The notes under the pieces are model-generated. The model worked only from the letters and a program-made list of their open reading frames with translations, did not search any database and was not told where the DNA came from. From NCBI GenBank assembly GCA_963703345.1, contig OY969814.1, forward strand, positions 2,048,001 through 2,112,000: 64,000 nt of DNA. The letters run 5' to 3'. Both the position numbers and the translations under genes were made by a program. The first letter of the stretch is position 1; each line of letters starts with the position of its first letter. This document shows positions 1,651 to 41,572 of the stretch, in pieces. Source of the stretch: an uncultured Chloroflexia bacterium (lineage in GTDB: Bacteria > Chloroflexota > Dehalococcoidia > DSTF01 > JALHUB01).

Positions 1651-1990
1651 GGAAGCGGCGGGGGTTCGGCGCGACGAGCGAAGCGAGGAGCGCAACGAGA
1701 ACGCGATCAGCGCACGTCTCACTGCCGCTACGAAGGCGACATGGACGATCGACGCAACATGAGGCTTCGTTGCAGGAAGCGACGTGGGTTCGGCCGCGAG
1801 GCTTCGCCTCGCGCAAGGCAAGCCTCCAATTCTGAGCCTGGCGATCCAGAAGCTGAGGGATTCATCCCTCAGAACTGTTTGTCGCCGCAGGAGGAGGTCT
1901 ATTGGGATCGGCGCGACGAGCGAAGCGAGGAGCGCAACGAGAACGCGATCAGCGCGCGCGGTAGCGTCGTCACGAACGCGACTTGGGAGA
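1651..1990 (+). repeat. Intergenic array of three repeat units (~120-bp period); identical 48-bp cores at 1666-1713 and 1908-1955, degenerate unit at ~1775-1826
   Basis: TCGGCGCGACGAGCGAAGCGAGGAGCGCAACGAGAACGCGATCAGCGC occurs twice exactly; 1651-1670 and 1775-1794 match at 18/20. Confidence 0.9.
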
Positions 1991-21168: not shown

Positions 21169-23883
21169 ATGACCACGGTCACAGAGGCATCGCCATCAGC
21201 GCCGCGGGCGCACCTGCCGATCAGGCGTCTGTTCACGACGCCCGGTCGCCACCCGTACGACGAGGTGGAATGGGAGACGCGCACCGCGAGTATCGTCGGC
21301 GAGGACGGCAAGGCCGTCTTCGAGCAGCACGACGTGGAGGTGCCGAAGGATTGGTCGCAGCGGGCGACGAACGTGGTCGCCTCGAAGTACTTCCGCGGGC
21401 CCCTGAGCGCCGACGCCGTCGTTCACCACGAGCGCGGCGAGATCAAGCGCGAGCGTAGCGTGCGCGAGCTCATCGACCGCGTCGCCGGCACGATAACGGC
21501 CTGGGGCGTCAAAGACGGCTACTTCGCGGACGGCGACGAGGCGGACAGCTTCGCGGCGGAGCTCGTTCACGTCATCCTCAACCAGAAGGCGACCTTCAAC
21601 AGCCCCGTCTGGTTCAACGTCGGCGTGGAGGAAGCGCCGCAGTGCTCCGCCTGCTTCATCCTCTCCGTCGACGACACGATGGACTCGATCCTCGACTGGT
21701 GCCGGACGGAAGGCATGATCTTCAAGGGCGGCTCGGGCTCCGGCGTCAACCTGTCGCGGTTGCGCTCGTCGCGGGAGCCGCTGTCGACGGGCGGACTCGC
21801 TTCCGGGCCGGTGTCGTTCATGCGCGGCGCCGACGCCATCGCCGGCTCCATCAAGTCGGGCGGAAAGACGCGGCGGGCGGCCAAGATGGTCATCCTCAAC
21901 GCCGACCACCCGGACATCGTCGAGTTCGTCGAATGCAAGGCGAAGGAGGAGCGGAAGGCGTACGCGCTGGGCGAGGCGGGCTACGACCTGTCGCTGGACG
22001 GCGAGGCGTGGACCTCGATCCAATTCCAGAACGCCAACAACTCCGTGCGCGTGACGGATGAGTTCATGCGGGCGGCGACGTCGGATGGGCAGTGGTCTTT
22101 GCGCGCGGTGACTACGGGCGAGACGGTGGAGGCGCTGCCGGCCCGCGACCTGCTGCGCAAGATCGCGGAGGCGGCCTGGCAGTGCGGCGACCCCGGGATG
22201 CAGTTCGACACGACGATCAACGACTGGCACACTTGCCCGGAGAGCGGCCGCATCAACGCCTCGAACCCCTGCTCCGAGTATATGCACCTCGACAACTCCG
22301 CCTGCAATCTGGCGTCGCTCAACCTGATGAAGTTCGTCGATGACGAGGGCGAGTTCGACGTGGAGTCGTTCCGGCAGGCGGTGACGGTAATGATCACGGC
22401 GCAGGAGATCATCGTCGGCAACGCCGGCTACCCGACGGAGCTCATCGGTGAGAACGCCAACAAGTATCGAGCGCTGGGGCTCGGCTACGCCAACCTCGGC
22501 GCGCTGCTCATGTCGCGCGGCCTCCCCTACGATTCGGACGCCGGACGCGCTTATGCCGCCGCGGTCACCGCCCTCATGACCGGCTACGCCTACGCGGCGT
22601 CCGCCCTGCTGGCGGCGCTCAAGGGCCCGTTCGCCGAGTTCGAGCGGAACCGCGCGCCGATGCTCGGCGTCGTCGAAAAGCACCGGAACGCGGTGGAGGG
22701 GATCGATGCGCCGCTGGTGCCGGAACCGCTGCTGGCGGCAGCGACAGCGGCCTGGGAGGAAGCGCTTTCGGCGGGGAGAGAGCACGGCTATCGCAACGCG
22801 CAGGTCAGCGTCCTGGCACCGACGGGCACCATCGCCTTCATGATGGACTGCGACACTACGGGCGTGGAGCCGGACATCGCGCTGGTGAGCTATAAGCGGC
22901 TGGTCGGCGGCGGCATGATCAAGCTGGTGAACCGCACCGTCCCGCTGGCGCTGCGCAAGCTCGGCTACGGGCGCGAGCGGATCCAGGAGATCGTGTCTTA
23001 TGTCGACCAGCAGGGCGTCATCGAAGGGGCGCCGAACCTCTCAGAGGAGCACCTGGCGGTGTTCGACTGCGCGCTCAAGCCGGCGAAGGGAACGCGCTGC
23101 ATTGCGCCGTTGGGGCACGTCCGGATGATGGGAGCAATCCAGCCGTTCATCTCCGGCGCGATCTCGAAGACCGTGAACCTGCCCAACGAATCGACGGCGG
23201 AAGAGGTGATGGAGACGTTCGTGGAAGCGTGGCGCAATGGCGTGAAGGCGATCGCCGTCTACCGCGACGGCTCCAAGCGCACGCAGCCGGTGAGCACGGG
23301 TCGGGAGAGCGCGGGGCCGGTCGCGAAGCCGGTGCGCCGCCGCCTGCCGGACACGCGCCACTCCATCACCCACAAGTTCTCGATAGAGGGGCACGAAGGA
23401 TACATCACCGTCGGGACGTACGAAGACGGCCCGCCGGGGGAGATCTTCATCACGATGGCGAAGGAAGGCAGCACGATCTCCGGCATGATGGACGCCTTCG
23501 CCACGTCGATATCGCTGACGCTGCAGTACGGTGTGCCGCTGAAGGACCTGGTGAACAAGTTCGGGCACATGCGCTTCGAGCCGGCGGGCATGACGCAGAA
23601 CCGCGAGATTCCGGTCGCTCAGTCGGTCGTCGACTACGTGTTCCGCTGGTTGGGCTCGCAGTTCCTGGGCGAGGAGGAGAAGGCGGAGCTGGGCATTCTC
23701 AGCGAGGCGGTGCGGCTGCGACTGGCGGCGGACTACGGGAAGCAAGGAGAGTTCGTCATCAAGTCGAACGGGCACAACGGGCAGGACGACGCGCCGGTGT
23801 GCATGAACTGCGGCTGGATTATGACGCGCAGCGGCACGTGCTATCGCTGCGAGAACTGCGGGAGCACGAGCGGCTGCTCATAA
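21169..23883 (+). CDS. nrdJ: Class II (adenosylcobalamin-dependent) ribonucleotide reductase with C-terminal TSCPD/Zn-ribbon
   Basis: FNSPVWFN, CSACFI, GGKTRRAA, NASNPCSEY, APTGTI, ISKTVN, RRRLPDTR, C-terminal CxxC..CxxC. Confidence 0.95.
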   Translation: MTTVTEASPSAPRAHLPIRRLFTTPGRHPYDEVEWETRTASIVGEDGKAVFEQHDVEVPKDWSQRATNVVASKYFRGPLSADAVVHHERGEIKRERSVRELIDRVAGTITAWGVKDGYFADGDEADSFAAELVHVILNQKATFNSPVWFNVGVEEAPQCSACFILSVDDTMDSILDWCRTEGMIFKGGSGSGVNLSRLRSSREPLSTGGLASGPVSFMRGADAIAGSIKSGGKTRRAAKMVILNADHPDIVEFVECKAKEERKAYALGEAGYDLSLDGEAWTSIQFQNANNSVRVTDEFMRAATSDGQWSLRAVTTGETVEALPARDLLRKIAEAAWQCGDPGMQFDTTINDWHTCPESGRINASNPCSEYMHLDNSACNLASLNLMKFVDDEGEFDVESFRQAVTVMITAQEIIVGNAGYPTELIGENANKYRALGLGYANLGALLMSRGLPYDSDAGRAYAAAVTALMTGYAYAASALLAALKGPFAEFERNRAPMLGVVEKHRNAVEGIDAPLVPEPLLAAATAAWEEALSAGREHGYRNAQVSVLAPTGTIAFMMDCDTTGVEPDIALVSYKRLVGGGMIKLVNRTVPLALRKLGYGRERIQEIVSYVDQQGVIEGAPNLSEEHLAVFDCALKPAKGTRCIAPLGHVRMMGAIQPFISGAISKTVNLPNESTAEEVMETFVEAWRNGVKAIAVYRDGSKRTQPVSTGRESAGPVAKPVRRRLPDTRHSITHKFSIEGHEGYITVGTYEDGPPGEIFITMAKEGSTISGMMDAFATSISLTLQYGVPLKDLVNKFGHMRFEPAGMTQNREIPVAQSVVDYVFRWLGSQFLGEEEKAELGILSEAVRLRLAADYGKQGEFVIKSNGHNGQDDAPVCMNCGWIMTRSGTCYRCENCGSTSGCS

Positions 23884-24065: not shown

Positions 24066-26423
24066 ATGGCGACAAAAGCTCACCCCGACTCCGTGCCCCT
24101 CTCCGACAACGCGCGCCTGGTACTCGAGCGGCGCTATCTGGCGAAGGACGAGCACGGGCGTATCGTCGAGACGCCGGACCAGCTCTTCCGACGCGTCGCA
24201 CACAACATCGCCGGCGCCGAAAGCGCGTACGGCGGTGCGCAGCAGGTGGACTTCTGGGAGCAGCGCTTCCACGAGGCGATGACCAGCCTGCGCTTCCTCC
24301 CCAACTCGCCGACGCTGGGGAATGCCGGTCAGCCGCTGCAGCAGCTCGCGGCCTGCTTCGTCCTGCCGGTCGAGGACTCGATGGAGGGCATCTTCGGCGC
24401 GATCTGCAACATGGCGGTGATCCACAAGAGCGGCGGCGGCACCGGCTTTTCGTTCAGTCGATTGCGGCCGGCCGGCGACATGGTGCGCAGCACGGCGGGC
24501 CTGGCGAGCGGGCCGGTATCGTTCATGAAGGTCTTCGACGCGGCGACGGAAGCGATCAAGCAGGGCGGCACGCGTCGCGGCGCCAACATGGCGATCCTCA
24601 ACGTCGAGCACCCGGACGTCGAGGAGTTCATCCGCATCAAGTCGGACATGGTGACGCTGACGAACTTCAACATCTCGGTGGGGGTGAACGAGCGGTTCAT
24701 GGAAGCCGTGGAGCGGGACGAGGAGTTCTCGCTCGTGAACCCGCGCACGCGGCGGCCGGTGGGCAAGCGACGGGCGCGCGCCGTGTTTCGCCTCATCGTC
24801 GAGAACGCCTGGGGGAACGGCGACCCCGGGCTCGTGTTCATCGACCGGGTGAACCGCGACAATCCGACGCTGCGACTCGGACCCATCGAGGCGACGAACC
24901 CCTGCGGCGAGCAGCCGCTGCTGCCATACGAGTCGTGCACGTTGGGCTCGATCAACCTGTCGCGGTTCGTCAAGGAGGGCGCGCGCGAGGTTGATTGGGA
25001 GGCTCTGGCGGCGACGGTGCCGGTCTGCGTGCGCTTCCTGGATGACGTCATCGACGTGAACCACTATCCGATGCCGGAGATAGCCGAGATGACGCTGAAG
25101 ACGCGGAAGATCGGCCTCGGCGTGATGGGCTGGGCCGACCTCCTCTTCCAGCTTCGCATCCCCTACGACTCCGACGAGGCGCTGAAGCTGGGCGAGCATA
25201 TGATGGCGTTCATCCAGGAGAAGGCGGACGCGGCTTCGGCGGAGCTGGCGCGGGAGCGGGGGACGTTCCCGGCATGGGAGGACAGCGTCTACGCGGCAGG
25301 GCGGGAGAGGCGGCCGCTGCGCAACTCGACGCGGACGACGGTGGCGCCGACGGGCACGCTTTCGATAATCGCCGACTGCTCGGGCGGCATTGAGCCGGTC
25401 TTCTCGCTGGCGTTCACGCGACAGCACTTCCTCGACCCGCACCATCCGAAGACGGCGACGAAGCTGACGGAGGTGAACAAGCAGTTCGAGCGCGTCGCGA
25501 AAGAGGAAGGCTTCTATTCGAAGAAGCTCATCGACGCACTCGCCGCCGGGGCGAGTCTCCGCGAGCAGGCGAAGGTGCCCGAGTGGGCAAAGGCGGTCTT
25601 CGTGTCGGCGCACGACGTCGCGCCGGAGTGGCACGTGCGGATGCAGGCGGCGTTCCAGCGCCACACGGACAACGCGGTGAGCAAGACGATCAACTTCCGT
25701 CAGGAGGCGACGCCGGACGACGTGGAGCGGGCGTACCTCCTCGCCTATCACGAGGGGTGCAAGGGGATCACGATCTATCGCGACGGGTCGCGGGAGATGC
25801 AGGTGCTGTCGCACACGACGGCGAAGGGCCCGGAGCAGCAGGAGGCGATAGCAGCGGAGCGGTCGCTGGGAGTGGCGGCGGGCCCGCCGTCGCTGCGGCC
25901 GGGCGAGCCGTACCGGCGCCGGCTGCCGGACCAAAGGGCGTCGCTGACGCACAAGTTCCAGGTGGGCGACCAGGAGGGGTATCTGACGGTCGGCCTGTAC
26001 GACGACGGCAGCCCCGGCGAGGTGTTCGTCACGATCTCGAAAGAGGGGTCGACGATACGGGGGCTGATGGACTCGGTGGCGGTGCTGACGTCGCTGGCGC
26101 TGCAGTACGGCGTGCCGCTGGAGGACCTGGCGCGGAAGTTCGAAGGGACGCGCTTCGAGCCGTACGGGTTCACGAACAATCCCGACCTGCGGCAGGCGAC
26201 GTCGCTGGTGGACTACATCTTCCGCTGGCTGGAGATGCGCTTCGGCGAGGGGAAGAAGGCGCCGCCGGCGAGCGGGTCGGCGCGCAGTCGCAAGAAGGGC
26301 GCCCCTCTGCCGGCGAGCGGGGACATCAGCACGGGGGTGGCGTGTCCGGACTGCGGGTCGCTGCTGGTGTTCGCGGAGGGGTGCCTGGCGTGTCGCTCCT
26401 GCGGGTATGAGCGGTGTGCTTAG
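24066..26423 (+). CDS. nrdJ: Second class II ribonucleotide reductase (different subfamily) with TSCPD/Zn-ribbon
   Basis: FLPNSPTLGNAG, QLAACFV, QGGTRRGANM, ATNPCGEQPL, APTGTLS, AVSKTIN, CPDC..CRSCG. Confidence 0.93.
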   Translation: MATKAHPDSVPLSDNARLVLERRYLAKDEHGRIVETPDQLFRRVAHNIAGAESAYGGAQQVDFWEQRFHEAMTSLRFLPNSPTLGNAGQPLQQLAACFVLPVEDSMEGIFGAICNMAVIHKSGGGTGFSFSRLRPAGDMVRSTAGLASGPVSFMKVFDAATEAIKQGGTRRGANMAILNVEHPDVEEFIRIKSDMVTLTNFNISVGVNERFMEAVERDEEFSLVNPRTRRPVGKRRARAVFRLIVENAWGNGDPGLVFIDRVNRDNPTLRLGPIEATNPCGEQPLLPYESCTLGSINLSRFVKEGAREVDWEALAATVPVCVRFLDDVIDVNHYPMPEIAEMTLKTRKIGLGVMGWADLLFQLRIPYDSDEALKLGEHMMAFIQEKADAASAELARERGTFPAWEDSVYAAGRERRPLRNSTRTTVAPTGTLSIIADCSGGIEPVFSLAFTRQHFLDPHHPKTATKLTEVNKQFERVAKEEGFYSKKLIDALAAGASLREQAKVPEWAKAVFVSAHDVAPEWHVRMQAAFQRHTDNAVSKTINFRQEATPDDVERAYLLAYHEGCKGITIYRDGSREMQVLSHTTAKGPEQQEAIAAERSLGVAAGPPSLRPGEPYRRRLPDQRASLTHKFQVGDQEGYLTVGLYDDGSPGEVFVTISKEGSTIRGLMDSVAVLTSLALQYGVPLEDLARKFEGTRFEPYGFTNNPDLRQATSLVDYIFRWLEMRFGEGKKAPPASGSARSRKKGAPLPASGDISTGVACPDCGSLLVFAEGCLACRSCGYERCA

Positions 26424-26432
26424 CCGGCAATG

Positions 26433-26602
26433 GCGTTCCTGGTTGCGTCCGCCTCCGGCGGACGCGCGAAACCGCGCCGCTATTTGGAAGATCGCCTAAT
26501 GTTACGTCGAAGTTCCATCCGACGTGCGAAACGGCAGTGCAAGGCGCGATGATCGCGTTCTTGTTGCGCTCCTCATCCGCCTGCGGCGGACTCGTCGCGC
26601 CG
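26433..26602 (-). repeat. Dispersed ~170-bp element, homologous over its length to 1667-~1826
   Basis: Reverse complement begins CGGCGCGACGAG-[TCCGCCGCAGGCGGAT]-GAGGAGCGCAACAAGAACGCGATCA and continues with the shared blocks CACTGCCG, ATGGA and TCGACGyAACATkAGGC. Confidence 0.85.
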
Positions 26603-37515: not shown

Positions 37516-38733
37516 CTAGGCGGAGGGAGTCGCCAGCGCGGCCTGGTAATCGCGCCAGCGCTCCTCCAGACGCGGGTCTTTCAGCGTCGCGAGGACGTAA
37601 TCGGTGAACTCACAGCCCTTGACGCCGGTCGGCCGGCCCGTGACGACCATCTTCTTCTCGAACGTGTCGCAAATCTCCAGGGCCATCTCCAGGCGGCGGC
37701 CGCGGTCGGCGAAACCGATGTGATTGAGGAGCATGGCGCCGGCGCGTATGAGGCCGCTGGGGTCGGCGTACTCCACGCGTCCTTCCTCGACCATGCGGGG
37801 CGCGCTGCCGTGAATGGCTTCGAACATGGCGTAGTGGCGGCCGATGTTGGCGCTGCCGGCGGTGCCGACGCCGCCCTGGAGCTCGGCGGCCTCGTCGGTA
37901 AGGATGTCGCCGTAGAGGTTGGGTAGGACGACAACGCGGAAGTGGGAGCGGCGCTTAGGGTCGACGAGTTTGGCCGGGATTATGTCAATATACCAGTCAT
38001 CCCACTCGATCTCAGGGTAGGCGGCGGCAATCCGCCTCGCCGTCTCGAGAAACTTGCCGTCGGTGGTCTTGATTACGTTGGCCTTGGTTACGACGGTGAC
38101 TCGTTTCTTGTCGTGCTTGCGCGCGTAGTCGAAGGCCATCTCGATGATGCGCTCGCTGCCCTGACTCGTCACCGCCGTGAAGTCGAAGGCGAGGTCATCT
38201 GTGACGTGGATGCCGCGGCTGCCCATAACGTAGGCGCCCTCGGTGTTCTCGCGGAAGAACGTCCAGTCGATGCCCTGGGCTGGGATCCTGACGGGGCGAA
38301 CGTTGGCGAAGAGGTCGAGGGCGCGGCGCATGGCGACGTTGGCGCTCTCGATGTTGGGCCAGGGGTCGCCGGCGCGCGGCGTGGTTGTGGGCGCCTTGAG
38401 GATAACGTGACAGCGCTTTAGCTCGTCGAGCACGTCGTCGGGGATGGCCTTGAGCTGGGCGGCGCGGTTTTCGATGGTGAGGCCGTCGATTGTCCTAAAG
38501 ACGATATCGCCGCGCTCCACTTCTGGCGCGAGGATGAACTCGAGGACGCGCTGCGATTCGCGGGAGATGTAGGGACCGATGCCGTCGCCGCCGCAGACGC
38601 CGATGACGAGCGGCCGGAGCGTCGAGTAGTCGACCCAGCCGTTGTCGGCCTTCATGCGGTCGACACGCGTTAGCTGCTCTTCGACTAGGGTCGCAAAGTG
38701 CTGTTTTGCCCGTTCGACGGCTTCTCTATCCAT
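37516..38733 (-). CDS. Isocitrate/isopropylmalate dehydrogenase family protein
   Basis: GDGIGP, LKAPTTTP, LDLFANVRP, RENTEG, TKANV, NLYGDILTD, FEAIHGSAP. Confidence 0.93.
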   Translation of the reverse strand: MDREAVERAKQHFATLVEEQLTRVDRMKADNGWVDYSTLRPLVIGVCGGDGIGPYISRESQRVLEFILAPEVERGDIVFRTIDGLTIENRAAQLKAIPDDVLDELKRCHVILKAPTTTPRAGDPWPNIESANVAMRRALDLFANVRPVRIPAQGIDWTFFRENTEGAYVMGSRGIHVTDDLAFDFTAVTSQGSERIIEMAFDYARKHDKKRVTVVTKANVIKTTDGKFLETARRIAAAYPEIEWDDWYIDIIPAKLVDPKRRSHFRVVVLPNLYGDILTDEAAELQGGVGTAGSANIGRHYAMFEAIHGSAPRMVEEGRVEYADPSGLIRAGAMLLNHIGFADRGRRLEMALEICDTFEKKMVVTGRPTGVKGCEFTDYVLATLKDPRLEERWRDYQAALATPSA

Positions 38734-38810: not shown

Positions 38811-38886
38811 TGGTGGCAGCGGAGGGATTTGAACCCCCGACCAAGGGCTTATGAGTCCCCTGCTCTACCGACTGAGCTACGCTGCC
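38811..38886 (-). tRNA. tRNA-Met(CAT), probably elongator (Ile2 not excluded)
   Basis: GGCAGCG...CGCTGCC-ACCA; anticodon loop CT-CAT-AA; paired G1-C72, so not fMet. Confidence 0.92.
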
Positions 38887-38920: not shown

Positions 38921-39022
38921 GGCGGGATTTGAATCCGCCGGCGGACAGGCACCCCAACCAAGGGGCTGGGCCCGGGTCGCCTCAGGCGACAGTCCCCTCT
39001 CGCCTTCGGCGAGTACGCTGCC
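38921..39022 (-). pseudogene. Degenerate duplicate of the adjacent tRNA-Met with palindromic hairpins in the D loop, anticodon loop and T arm
   Basis: Collinear blocks GGCAGCGTA / AGGGGACT / AGCCC(C)TTGGTyGGGG / TTCAAATCCCkCC shared with 38811-38886. Confidence 0.85.
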
Positions 39023-39091: not shown

Positions 39092-39508
39092 TCAGAGCGC
39101 GGGCGTCACCTCTGAAGTGCAGTAGGCGCAGCGACGCGCTTCCGACGGTATGTCGCTCAGGCACTCCGGACACTTGCGGACGGTCGGGTCCGGCGGCGGC
39201 TCCTTTCGAGAGCGGGCCAGATAGGCGTTCAGCGGCACGACTATCAGGAAGAAGACTACCGCGCCTATCAAAACGAAGGTGATCGTTTTGTTGATGAAGT
39301 CGCCGTAGCGGAAGGTGCTGTCGTGGATTGTGAAGGCGAGGGCGGAGAAGTCCTGCTGGCCGCCGATGGCCGCGATGAGCGGCGTTATGAAGTCCTGGAC
39401 CAGCGCCGTGACTACCGCGCCGAAGGCGGCGCCAACCACTACCGCAATCGCGAGGTCGACGACGTTCCCCCTTAGCAAGAACGCCTTGAAGTCGTTGATG
39501 AGTTTCAT
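39092..39508 (-). CDS. mscL: Large-conductance mechanosensitive channel with C-terminal CxxC..CxxC
   Basis: FKAFLLRGNVVDLAIAVVVGAAF, YGDFIN, CPECLS..CAYCT. Confidence 0.95.
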   Translation of the reverse strand: MKLINDFKAFLLRGNVVDLAIAVVVGAAFGAVVTALVQDFITPLIAAIGGQQDFSALAFTIHDSTFRYGDFINKTITFVLIGAVVFFLIVVPLNAYLARSRKEPPPDPTVRKCPECLSDIPSEARRCAYCTSEVTPAL

Positions 39509-39649: not shown

Positions 39650-41497
39650 ATGATAGCGACCAAGCAACCTCTTGTCGAACGCGTGGGGGCGCTACCGAAC
39701 AAGCCCGGCGTGTACATCTTCCGCAATGAAGAAGGACGCGTCATCTACGTCGGGAAGGCGGCGGCGTTGCGCAATCGCGTGCGCTCCTACTTCGGCTCGC
39801 CGCGGAGCATGGAGTCGAAGGTGCGGGCGCTGGCGTCGAGCATCGCTGATTTCGACTACATCGTCACGAACACAGCGCAGGAGGCGCTGCACCTGGAGGC
39901 GACGCTGGTCAAGCGGCACCAGCCCGTCTTCAATGTGCGCCTGAAAGACGACAAGCACTACCCGTACCTCAAGATCGACGTGCAGAACCAGTGGCCGCGC
40001 GTCGAGATAACGCGACGCATCGAGAACGACGGCGCGCGCTACTTCGGGCCGTACGCGAGCGCCAGCTCCGTGCGCAGAACCCTCGACGTCGTCAAACGCC
40101 TCTTCCCCTGGCGTCCCTGCACTGAGGAGGTCACCGGTAGTCGCCCGCGGCCATGCCTGGACTTCTTCATCGGGCGCTGCATTGCGCCCTGCTCCGGCGC
40201 CTGCTCCGAGGAGGAGTACGACGAGGTGATCCGCCAGGTGATCCTCTTCCTCGAAGGGCGGACCGAGAACGTGCTGCGGGCGCTGCGAGCGCAGATGGAC
40301 GAGGCGTCGCGGAACATGCAGTACGAGCGGGCGGCGATCCTTCGCGACCAGATTCGAGCCATCGAGAACGTGTCGGAGGCGCAGGTGACGGCGTACGCGC
40401 GGCCGACAGACGAGGACGTCTTCGGTCTTGCGCGGTCGGAGGGCGAAGCGGTGGCGCAGGTGCTGTTCGTCCGCGGCACGAAGATGATCGGCGGCGACCA
40501 CTTCCCGCTCGACGGGACGAAGGGGGAGCCAGACGCGGAGGTGATGAACGGCTTCCTGAAGCAGTTCTACGAGTCGGCGACTTACGTTCCGCGGACGGTC
40601 CTGCTGCCGCTGGAAATTCCGGAGATGGCGGAAATCGAGGATTGGCTGTCGGAGCGGCGCGGTGGTCGCGTGAAGCTGGTGACGCCGAGGCGCGGCACGA
40701 AACGCCGTCTCGTCAATATGGCGACGGAGAACGCCCGCGAGGCGCTGGCGGTGGCGCGGCTGCGCTGGCTAACGGACTCGGGCAAGACGCAGCAGGCGCT
40801 GGAGGAGCTCCAGGAGGAGCTCAATCTGCCAGCGCCGCCAGGTCGCATCGAGTGCTACGACATCTCCGACATCATGGGCGCGCATCCGGTCGGCAGCATG
40901 GTGGTGTTCGTCGATGGGCGGCCCCGGCGCGCGGAGTACCGTCGCTTTCGGGTCAAGAGCGTCGAAGGGGCGAACGACGTGGCGATGATGGCGGAGGTGC
41001 TGCGACGTCGCTTCAAGCGGGCGGCGCAGGCGGTGGAGGCGCAGGAGGAAGCGCAGGCGGAAGGCTGGGGCGCTCTACCGGACCTGCTCATCGTCGACGG
41101 CGGGAAGGCGCAGCTCAACGCGGCGCTCGACGTGTTACGGGAGGCCGGCGTGCCGCTCATTCCGGCAGCAGGGCTGGCCAAGCAGCAGGAGGAACTTTAT
41201 GTGAAGGACGTGTCGGAGCCGATTGTGCTGTCGCGCACGTCGCAGGCGCTCTACCTGCTGCAACGCATCCGCGACGAGGCGCATCGCTTTGCTGTCACGT
41301 ACCATCGCAATGTGCGACAGAAGGCCGGGACGCGCTCGGCGCTGGATGCAATACCGGGCGTGGGGCCGAAGCGGAAGCAGGCGCTGCTGCGGAAGTTCGG
41401 GTCGGTGCGAGAGATACGGGAGGCGAGCGTCGATGAGATTGCCTCGACGGTTGGGTACACGCGGTCGCTGGCGGAGCGGGTGAAGGAGTACCTCTAA
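39650..41497 (+). CDS. uvrC: Excinuclease ABC subunit C (start could be 39638 or 39644)
   Basis: GIY-YIG (PGVYIF..YVGKA), RIECYDIS, DGGKAQL, IRDEAHRFA, HhH. Confidence 0.98.
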   Translation: MIATKQPLVERVGALPNKPGVYIFRNEEGRVIYVGKAAALRNRVRSYFGSPRSMESKVRALASSIADFDYIVTNTAQEALHLEATLVKRHQPVFNVRLKDDKHYPYLKIDVQNQWPRVEITRRIENDGARYFGPYASASSVRRTLDVVKRLFPWRPCTEEVTGSRPRPCLDFFIGRCIAPCSGACSEEEYDEVIRQVILFLEGRTENVLRALRAQMDEASRNMQYERAAILRDQIRAIENVSEAQVTAYARPTDEDVFGLARSEGEAVAQVLFVRGTKMIGGDHFPLDGTKGEPDAEVMNGFLKQFYESATYVPRTVLLPLEIPEMAEIEDWLSERRGGRVKLVTPRRGTKRRLVNMATENAREALAVARLRWLTDSGKTQQALEELQEELNLPAPPGRIECYDISDIMGAHPVGSMVVFVDGRPRRAEYRRFRVKSVEGANDVAMMAEVLRRRFKRAAQAVEAQEEAQAEGWGALPDLLIVDGGKAQLNAALDVLREAGVPLIPAAGLAKQQEELYVKDVSEPIVLSRTSQALYLLQRIRDEAHRFAVTYHRNVRQKAGTRSALDAIPGVGPKRKQALLRKFGSVREIREASVDEIASTVGYTRSLAERVKEYL

Positions 41498-41518: not shown

Positions 41519-41572
41519 CGGCGCGACGAGTCCGCCCCCGGCAGACGAGGAGCGCAACCCCGAACGCGATCA
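41519..41572 (+). repeat. Further copy of the dispersed repeat core
   Basis: CGGCGCGACGAG-[TCCGCCCCCGGCAGAC]-GAGGAGCGCAACCCCGAACGCGATCA between convergent genes. Confidence 0.85.

Follow-up and report, generated by a model that had tools for sequence, protein, structure and literature searches.

Short palindromes scattered through the window, by which we mean the whole 64,000-nucleotide stretch analysed here, are forms of one 15-nt hairpin, YYCGCC-N3-GGCGRR (commonly YYCGCC-NNA-GGCGRR). This hairpin is enriched between genes, polymorphic as a block at orthologous sites and placed in stem-loops, whose tips or arms it replaces, and it may well be copied into them by way of a nick from a small GIY-YIG nuclease and repair from a donor. 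The window is G000:C1:2048001-2112000, where G000 denotes its genome (2.28 Mb, 64% GC, a single contig) and other G numbers denote comparison genomes; coordinates given without a contig are those of the window.

The earlier note on this DNA had described six CGCC-Nn-GGCG palindromes as a family linking otherwise unrelated loci. All six strings lie where it had placed them, five with perfectly complementary arms and either no loop or one of 3 nt, and the sixth, at 41531-41545, with one mismatch. The family was nevertheless drawn too widely, since of the loop lengths covered by 'Nn' only that of 3 nt is clearly enriched, and the three loci are in fact related, being copies of one ~150-nt repeat and one tRNA ghost. 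Enrichment was assessed in 370,127 intergenic nt (1,431 segments) defined by self-trained gene calls of G000, against Markov models of order 3 and order 5, each simulated 20 times; expectations are quoted in that order. CGCC-N3-GGCG is seen 67 times between genes where 42.5 and 39.4 are expected (simulated maximum 53), CCGCC-N3-GGCGG 22 times (3.8 and 4.2) and TCCGCC-N3-GGCGGA 14 times (0.1 and 0.1), a 140-fold excess for the last, which has no copy in the 1.91 Mb of G000 genes searched. The excess over a GC-matched expectation, named in the earlier note as a check, is therefore present for the 15-mer between genes, with none within them. In the same intergenic DNA the reversed-arm control GGCG-N3-CGCC is not enriched (36 against 42 and 41), loops of 0, 1, 4 and 5 nt occur at expectation (60 against 54-56, 40 against 38-41, 44 against 40-41 and 45 against 42-43, respectively) and the 2-nt form is marginal (46 against 36 and 33).

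These figures bear directly on whether the palindromes are simply chance matches in DNA of 64% GC, or sequencing or assembly artefacts at hairpins, which we regard as extremely improbable. The bare 8-bp core with a 3-nt spacer is indeed common, with 619 copies across the genome, and in the contigs from independent runs (4 of 9 listed runs) no listed piece spans the ghost. Set against this are the 140-fold excess between genes and absence from genes, the identical filled states in separate assemblies, the existence of decayed variants and the patchy counts, from 0 to 152 over 201 genomes of the class and from 8 to 118 within genus g38. Among the 37 intergenic G000 copies listed with arms of at least 5, some of them due to chance, no end tag of GTAG or CGTC common to the contexts was found. 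The loopless copy at 38934-38945 is probably a loop-deleted derivative. Other hairpin cores are also repeated in intergenic G000 DNA, namely GGGGACACCCC (13 times), TCGGCAACCCGA (11 times), GGATGAATCC and GGTTGAAACC (8 times each), and mark further repeat families.

Three of the six palindromes belong to a ~150-nt, MITE-like dispersed repeat. A full copy lies on the minus strand of the nrdJ-yggS spacer (26445..26601) with a slot at each end, both filled: the right-end slot (26445..26465) reads TCCGCC-GGA-GGCGGA on the minus strand and the left-end slot (26576..26590) has a GCA loop, also on the minus strand. The uvrC-DUF72 spacer contains the left end of another copy (41520..41571, plus strand), with the decayed hairpin at 41531-41545. 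Empty forms are found within the window itself, in a copy at 1668..1814 (plus strand), which has GCGAAGC in its left slot and CGAGGCTTCGCCTCG in its right, and in a second empty left end at 1910..1950 (plus strand). Of 15 copies in G000, nine have GCGAAGC in the left slot, four the hairpin and two another sequence. The repeat is itself polymorphic for presence, with ~15 left ends in G000 and more matches in congeners. The window also has two neighbouring, related ribonucleotide-reductase-like genes (21169-23883 and 24066-26423), the second being the B12-dependent NrdJ.

The same exchange is visible between congeners at orthologous sites. In the nrdJ-yggS spacer the 26576 slot is filled in G000 and has the empty, mini-hairpin form in all three congeners with the repeat there (G001, G007 and G008); G002 and G003 lack the repeat in this spacer. 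At the 26445 slot G008 has the filled and G007 the empty form. The uvrC-DUF72 slot is filled in G002 and G003, of empty type in two copies of G007 and occupied by a third type of hairpin in G008. In G007 this region is present on two contigs with different spacers (L395, L399), so that the assembly may mix strains. The earlier claim that each palindrome occupies a site where its partner holds a different or shorter sequence is thus confirmed both between repeat copies and between congeners, and the empty/filled pairs in close relatives that were to be looked for are present. Because both enrichment and orthologous empty/filled pairs were found, neither of the outcomes named beforehand as speaking against the idea, no excess over expectation and no such pairs, applies. 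The hairpin likewise appears in exchange for GCGAAGC in G136 and G099, there within repeat families of unrelated kinds.

The remaining three palindromes are edits of a tRNA copy. Between an isocitrate/isopropylmalate dehydrogenase family gene (37516..38733) and mscL (39092..39508), which flank the locus on the minus strand and serve as synteny anchors, lie an intact tRNA with a CAT anticodon (38811..38886, minus strand; called Met by ARAGORN, Met or Ile2) and its promoter-proximal ghost (38924..39022, minus strand), which covers tRNA positions 1 to ~62 and has three hairpin edits. In the first, CTCGCC-GAA-GGCGAG (38999..39013, minus strand) stands exactly in place of the whole D arm, tRNA positions 10-25, with identical boundaries in G001, G012 and G016. 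In the second, GTCGCC-TGA-GGCGAC (38976-38990) and an 8-nt linker (together 38968..38990, minus strand) replace the anticodon loop bases CATA, an edit found with other loops in the ghosts of G001, G002 and G012. In the third, CCTG and the loopless hairpin (38934..38949, minus strand) are inserted immediately before the T loop; the G002 ghost has the equivalent edit with a 3-nt loop. The edits form a series, with one in G016, two in G001 and three in G000. The predicted structure of the ghost RNA is not a cloverleaf (z -2.4), and the ghost is therefore not claimed as a functional RNA.

Hairpin ghosts are present at tRNA(CAT) in six of the 15 relatives' loci listed (G001, G002, G010, G012, G016 and G017) and a short stub in G003 and G008; the other listed loci have no ghost or no tRNA. 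The stub, of ~23 nt and directly upstream of the tRNA (L002 in G003, L003 in G008), suggests that the common ancestor of G000, G003 and G008 had the ghost and that G003 and G008 later lost it by deletion. In G012 at least eight mini-ghosts of ~37-45 nt, each a tRNA 5' end with a hairpin, are arrayed before tRNA(CAT) (L008). In G002, G012 and G016 a GIY-YIG gene of 84-96 aa lies directly behind tRNA(CAT), between tRNA and ghost, and since these genomes keep the gene there, the window ghost can be read as the scar of a cassette after nuclease loss. Most simply, then, it is likely to be a remnant of a tRNA(CAT) GIY-YIG cassette whose nuclease gene has gone. A phylum-wide search recovered the D-arm edit in only two of 301 genomes, G000 included, and among these 301 the edit is local to the window's family.

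The earlier note had also held that the enzyme is not in the window, and this agrees with what we find: the sole GIY-YIG domain found there is that of uvrC (39650..41497, plus strand), a repair gene and not the candidate. The candidates are stand-alone GIY-YIG genes of ~85 aa (UPF0213/Slx1-like) located elsewhere in G000 and at tRNA(CAT) in relatives. G000 has three, two at tRNA-Ser(GCT) and one at tRNA-Asn, all accompanied by hairpin ghosts, while its CAT and Ile loci have ghosts and no nuclease gene, both isotypes hosting the gene in relatives. At the Asn locus (L410, G000:C1:1810424-1811090) three tandem ghosts of 103 nt, all identical, stand before the tRNA, and the GIY-YIG gene follows it; the final codons of this gene overlap a further ghost, the fourth, which is hairpin-edited, and immediately after it an integrated element seems to start. 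At the Ser locus (L411, G000:C1:1147890-1148970) the two GIY-YIG genes are interleaved with tRNA-Ser(GCT) and with several fragments edited in the T loop, and the promoter region is duplicated upstream of both ghost and intact gene. The tRNA-Ile ghost lies in the rRNA spacer (G000:C1:1263520-1263590), with a hairpin for its anticodon arm and no adjoining nuclease gene. A fifth, weak GIY-YIG match (G000:C1:1861498-1861641) has no link to a tRNA, and extra tRNA-like genes outside the main clusters, a second Arg-GCG and an odd, short-armed 'Ser-GCT' (G000:C1:568830-568906 and 246578-246653), are possibly integration scars.

The association with tRNAs extends well beyond this genome. Within the window's family the GIY-YIG gene occurs in 14 of 18 genomes and is lodged among tRNA genes at 15 of 19 loci. 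In a pattern-limited sample of 110 homologous loci from many phyla, surveyed with a relaxed ARAGORN threshold, a tRNA lies within 400 nt of the nuclease gene at 94, a hairpin nearby at 34 and both at 31. A hairpin is found no more than 300 nt from the gene in 24 of 96 cases against three of 83 distal flanks, a control that is mostly coding DNA (L066, a duplicate locus, was omitted). The Asn-ghost pattern is present in at least 119 metagenome stretches and, among the matches listed, a same-strand GIY-YIG gene accompanies 77 of 119 Asn ghosts and 25 of the 34 with full flanks. Ghost loops are NNA or its complement, TNN, in 88 of the 101 distinct ghosts among the matches listed, with 24 loop types and both orientations represented, which fits a DNA hairpin.

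The edits themselves fall into several kinds. Exact arm swaps are seen for the D arm of tRNA(CAT) (10-25), the anticodon arm of Ile (27-43) and that of Val, the last without stem microhomology; Asn is partially replaced (29-34), and pure insertions occur in the D loop and T loop. The table behind these statements has 77 rows, some of them noise from neighbouring tRNAs, and the rows cited were individually inspected. Other hairpin 'dialects' occupy the same tRNA slots, of TCCTTCC type (L050, and L475, in G129 and G017), CCTGCC type (L078, L141) and CGC-loop type (L116, L134), and suggest several related hairpin families.

As proteins, the candidates are of a minimal kind. The catalytic Y, Y, G, R, H and E are kept in at least 158 of 169 proteins, all five tested proteins of 84-96 aa match PF01541 above cut-off and the structural model has a pLDDT of 86. 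Among solved structures, UPF0213 proteins and Slx1 come closest in sequence and fold; Foldseek with the model gave no match at E<=0.001. The nearest matches of the nuclease are labelled class Dehalococcoidia, so that the organism probably belongs to that class. In a quick tree of 169 proteins over 87 columns, nucleases of the same tRNA isotype group together, with 59 changes against 101 when shuffled, and four CAT-type nucleases form a starred clade; the Asn-ghost label still requires 13 changes. Each nuclease lineage at tRNAs carries a tRNA fragment with its own edit, and from this tree the edits appear to be inherited with tRNA-specific nuclease lineages.

A mechanism in keeping with these data would start from a Slx1/Ssn-like nuclease, specific for single strands or for structure, that nicks a stem-loop in single-stranded DNA. 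The nick would then be repaired from a hairpin donor, by template switching or gene conversion, with short conserved flanks as the guide. The cassette would gain either an edited tRNA copy immune to the nuclease or the nuclease's docking hairpin. Acting in trans, the same process could overwrite the GCGAAGC mini-hairpin where it occurs in dispersed repeats, and likewise the tips of variable helices in terminators, riboswitches and RNase P RNA; of the events there, selection would retain harmless ones only. The earlier suggestion of a minimal mobile or enzymatically written hairpin that targets stem-loops thus survives in so far as the hairpin is enriched and replaces stem-loop tips; autonomous mobility and de novo writing stay hypothetical, and at tRNAs the edits are inherited with nuclease lineages. 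A bolder version of the mechanism would make the 15-nt hairpin a selfish element, grafted in for the arm of stem-loops that a Slx1-like single-domain nuclease cuts in single-stranded DNA, with one such enzyme-hairpin pair rewriting tRNA copies, riboswitches, RNase P helices, terminators and loops of unrelated repeats across many phyla. This we hold only tentatively, and on the doubtful side.

It is also conceivable, if rather unlikely, that no dedicated enzyme is involved. Host recombination and template switching between stem-loops with short common flanks would then suffice; the hairpin would enter genomes inside repeats and tRNA cassettes, with the GIY-YIG gene just one vehicle, and selection would purge copies outside variable helix tips. 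The occurrence of the hairpin inside several unrelated repeat families is in line with this, as is the same swap with the same flanks in Ile and Val. Among the matches listed, moreover, the base adjoining the edit is that of the local intact tRNA in 67 of 69 Asn ghosts, which shows local gene conversion. What such a process leaves unexplained is the prevalence across phyla of one core with an NNA loop, and the clean, duplication-free insertion in G180 of a 43-nt hairpin module, which lies 3' of TC in 17 of 20 copies (see below).

Genome-wide profiling, suggested earlier as a way to a co-occurring enzyme, gave a divided answer: the link between enzyme and hairpin is strong at tRNAs and weak across whole genomes. 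By a set threshold 30 of the 201 class genomes are hairpin-rich, kin among them not being independent. The nuclease at E<=1e-8 is found in 17 of these 30 and in 73 of the 171 others (p=0.17); close homologues are found in 8 of 30 and 17 of 171 (p=0.017, with kin not independent). The figures for Y1 transposases are 10 of 30 against 32 of 171 (p=0.09) and for DUF559 15 of 30 against 58 of 171 (p=0.10), and GIY-YIG, Y1 transposase and DUF559 were each rejected as a universal enzyme, none covering the 30 hairpin-rich genomes. That no single tested enzyme is present in all of these genomes is a further point for a process with no dedicated enzyme. The hairpin-rich genomes G055, G072, G099, G172 and G196 have only a UvrC-sized GIY-YIG match, and G060 has none. 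These figures count against copying of the hairpin by way of the nuclease, as do the presence of a hairpin near only 34 of the 110 nuclease loci, the other hairpin types in the same tRNA slots and the many edits that are partial replacements or pure insertions. The hairpin lies beside genes from several phyla. A phage source was rejected, none of 51 viral loci matching a 16-base pattern having the nuclease and most looking like chance matches in coding DNA.

The genome G180 presents the hairpin in a different guise. Here it lies within a 43-nt module inserted 3' of TC with no target duplication in 17 of 20 copies, as might be expected of an IS200/IS605-type element; the replacements of G000 do not follow this pattern. 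The module occurs in at least four host repeat families and is at times nested in itself (L313-L332); over the ~0.4 Mb covered, an empty counterpart of the junction exists for 11 of the 20 copies, and one loop variant is dominant. The module is itself a candidate for a miniature mobile element. These observations would suit a scheme in which the hairpin or a longer module is generally a miniature non-autonomous element moved by another enzyme, either a HUH/Y1 transposase or a reverse transcriptase, and the difference in Y1 transposase frequency just given leans the same way. We nonetheless consider it unlikely: Y1 transposase (PF01797) is absent from G000, from G002 and from all nine genomes of G180's genus, g38, G000 has no match to reverse transcriptase (PF00078), and events in G000 are mostly replacements rather than insertions. 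Hairpin orientation, which tracks GC skew in G180 (29 of 34, counted by eye) and would also fit such an element, has the opposite bias in G000 (1 of 11), so that a replication-strand rule is unsupported and was not used.

Beyond repeats and tRNA copies, the hairpin is found in structured RNAs of G000. Copies lie in two variable helices of RNase P RNA, which we take to be P12 and P19, and in the hairpin behind it; others are in a c-di-AMP riboswitch and a T-box leader. The riboswitch, at genome position 523886, was identified by Rfam, overturning a label of SRP RNA for that site. These sites too vary among congeners. The rnpB terminator has a filled tip in G000, G002 and G003 and a decayed one in G006 and G007; a different tip is found in G001, G004, G005, G008, G010 and G012. 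At the riboswitch G008 is without one 15-nt copy, a 15-nt indel relative to G000, and a spacer copy at 280040 is missing from both G008 and G005. The T-box copy is common to four congeners; for the site at 476233 no alignment to congeners was obtained. The position at tips in essential RNAs may reflect survivorship instead of targeting.

Copies in functional helices and in a terminator, kept among congeners in the case of the T-box, might instead suggest convergence, whereby point mutation, fold-back correction and selection for very stable RNA or DNA hairpins, such as terminators, RNA caps and nuclease-resistant GNA loops, yield the same palindrome repeatedly. It is also true that GCGNAGC mini-hairpins are nuclease-resistant, the GCGAAGC of empty slots being the classic DNA mini-hairpin of this kind (PMC13037366). 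Convergence is very unlikely all the same, given that filled and empty forms differ as a block among close congeners, that the reversed-arm control is not enriched, that the loop is seen either way round in the RNA sense and that many loops are ANA or TNA, not GNA.

Transfer of the hairpin through a GIY-YIG nick and donor repair, our preferred reading, would have some wider consequences. In the published literature we found neither the hairpin swap nor the tRNA cassette described, although the Ssn supplements may list related motifs, and the hairpin is a real, polymorphic and apparently undescribed micro-element. Little is settled about the way very short repeats move in bacteria, and pairs of repeat and enzyme are limited to REP/RAYT and, recently, Ssn/SRM. 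The present case offers a 15-nt unit, clean empty and filled orthologous alleles and boundaries in tRNA coordinates, and the candidate nuclease is small and easily expressed, so that the question is testable with oligonucleotides. It suggests what a large, uncharacterised branch of UPF0213/Slx1-like proteins may do, how the variable helices of riboswitches and RNase P RNA may have arisen and why pseudo-tRNAs are called in uncultured bacteria. If true, a structure-directed 'hairpin swap' would be a mode of DNA mobility and a source of hypervariable bacterial RNA helices, and a new specificity among single-strand DNA nucleases would have value as a tool, as for Ssn.

Several known systems share features with the hairpin. 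The SDR elements of Nostoc, reportedly described by Elhai et al. in 2008, are said to be very small mobile repeats lying within other repeats and nested in themselves, 21-27 nt in size and restricted to a cyanobacterial subgroup; an RNA intermediate involving a reverse transcriptase was reportedly proposed, with the enzyme unnamed. They resemble the present hairpin in small size and in this nesting within other repeats and within itself; it differs from them in its 15-nt core, its presence in several phyla, its frequent replacement of an arm and its linkage to a nuclease. If it is indeed a selfish element, it would be smaller than the SDR repeats. The nuclease, for its part, is like the prokaryotic Slx1-like/UPF0213 proteins (PMC1564403; PDB 1zg2, 1ywl) in being a minimal stand-alone GIY-YIG domain, and these are its best sequence and fold matches. 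What that source says of them treats them as probable repair proteins and mentions no association with tRNA genes or hairpins (PMC1564403).

Location among tRNA genes is shared with SegB of phage T4, a free-standing GIY-YIG homing endonuclease that recognises a T-arm motif and spreads its own gene along with neighbouring tRNA genes (PMC2330249). SegB, which cuts double-stranded DNA, has a DNA-binding part at its C terminus (PMC2330249), whereas the proteins here are bare 84-96-aa domains with no C-terminal DNA-binding (NUMOD) part after the catalytic domain, encoded in cellular chromosomes beside hairpin-edited tRNA fragments. With REP and REPIN sequences the hairpin has in common that it is an extragenic palindrome of patchy and at times high copy number (PMC3733652, PMC3116915, PMC2817692), and GTAG-14 repeats have alternative self-complementary loop inserts with GCGG/CCGC termini (PMC3733652). 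Unlike REP/RAYT, G000 has no GTAG tag and no Y1 transposase, and the unit here is the loop insert itself, common to unrelated repeat families and RNA genes; some of its host repeats in other genomes do carry GTAG- or CGTC-type tags.

The likeness to Ssn/SRM lies in a single-domain GIY-YIG gene of ~90 aa tied to a short DNA hairpin that is also dispersed (PMC11893778). SsnA, of 94 aa and a precedent for the mechanism proposed above, binds its cognate hairpin only as single-stranded DNA and cuts a few bases upstream, and its authors propose an origin in a mobile element (PMC11893778). Ssn genes, of family cd10448, are flanked by SRM repeats of CGTC type while those described here flank tRNAs, a word absent from the main text of the Ssn paper (PMC11893778). 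The NP-x-W-x-D tail of SRM-flanked proteins is present in none of the 110 nucleases here, and identity to an SRM-type protein is 28% over 67 columns. A strict SRM motif (3 of 110 loci here) was dropped, having found none of seven in the positive control; with a looser CGTC-type pattern, SRM/NTS flanks are seen at six of 110 loci here, where shuffling gives a mean of 2.5 and a maximum of 7, against four of seven Ssn-like loci. In a further difference from Ssn/SRM, the hairpin described here replaces parts of other stem-loops.
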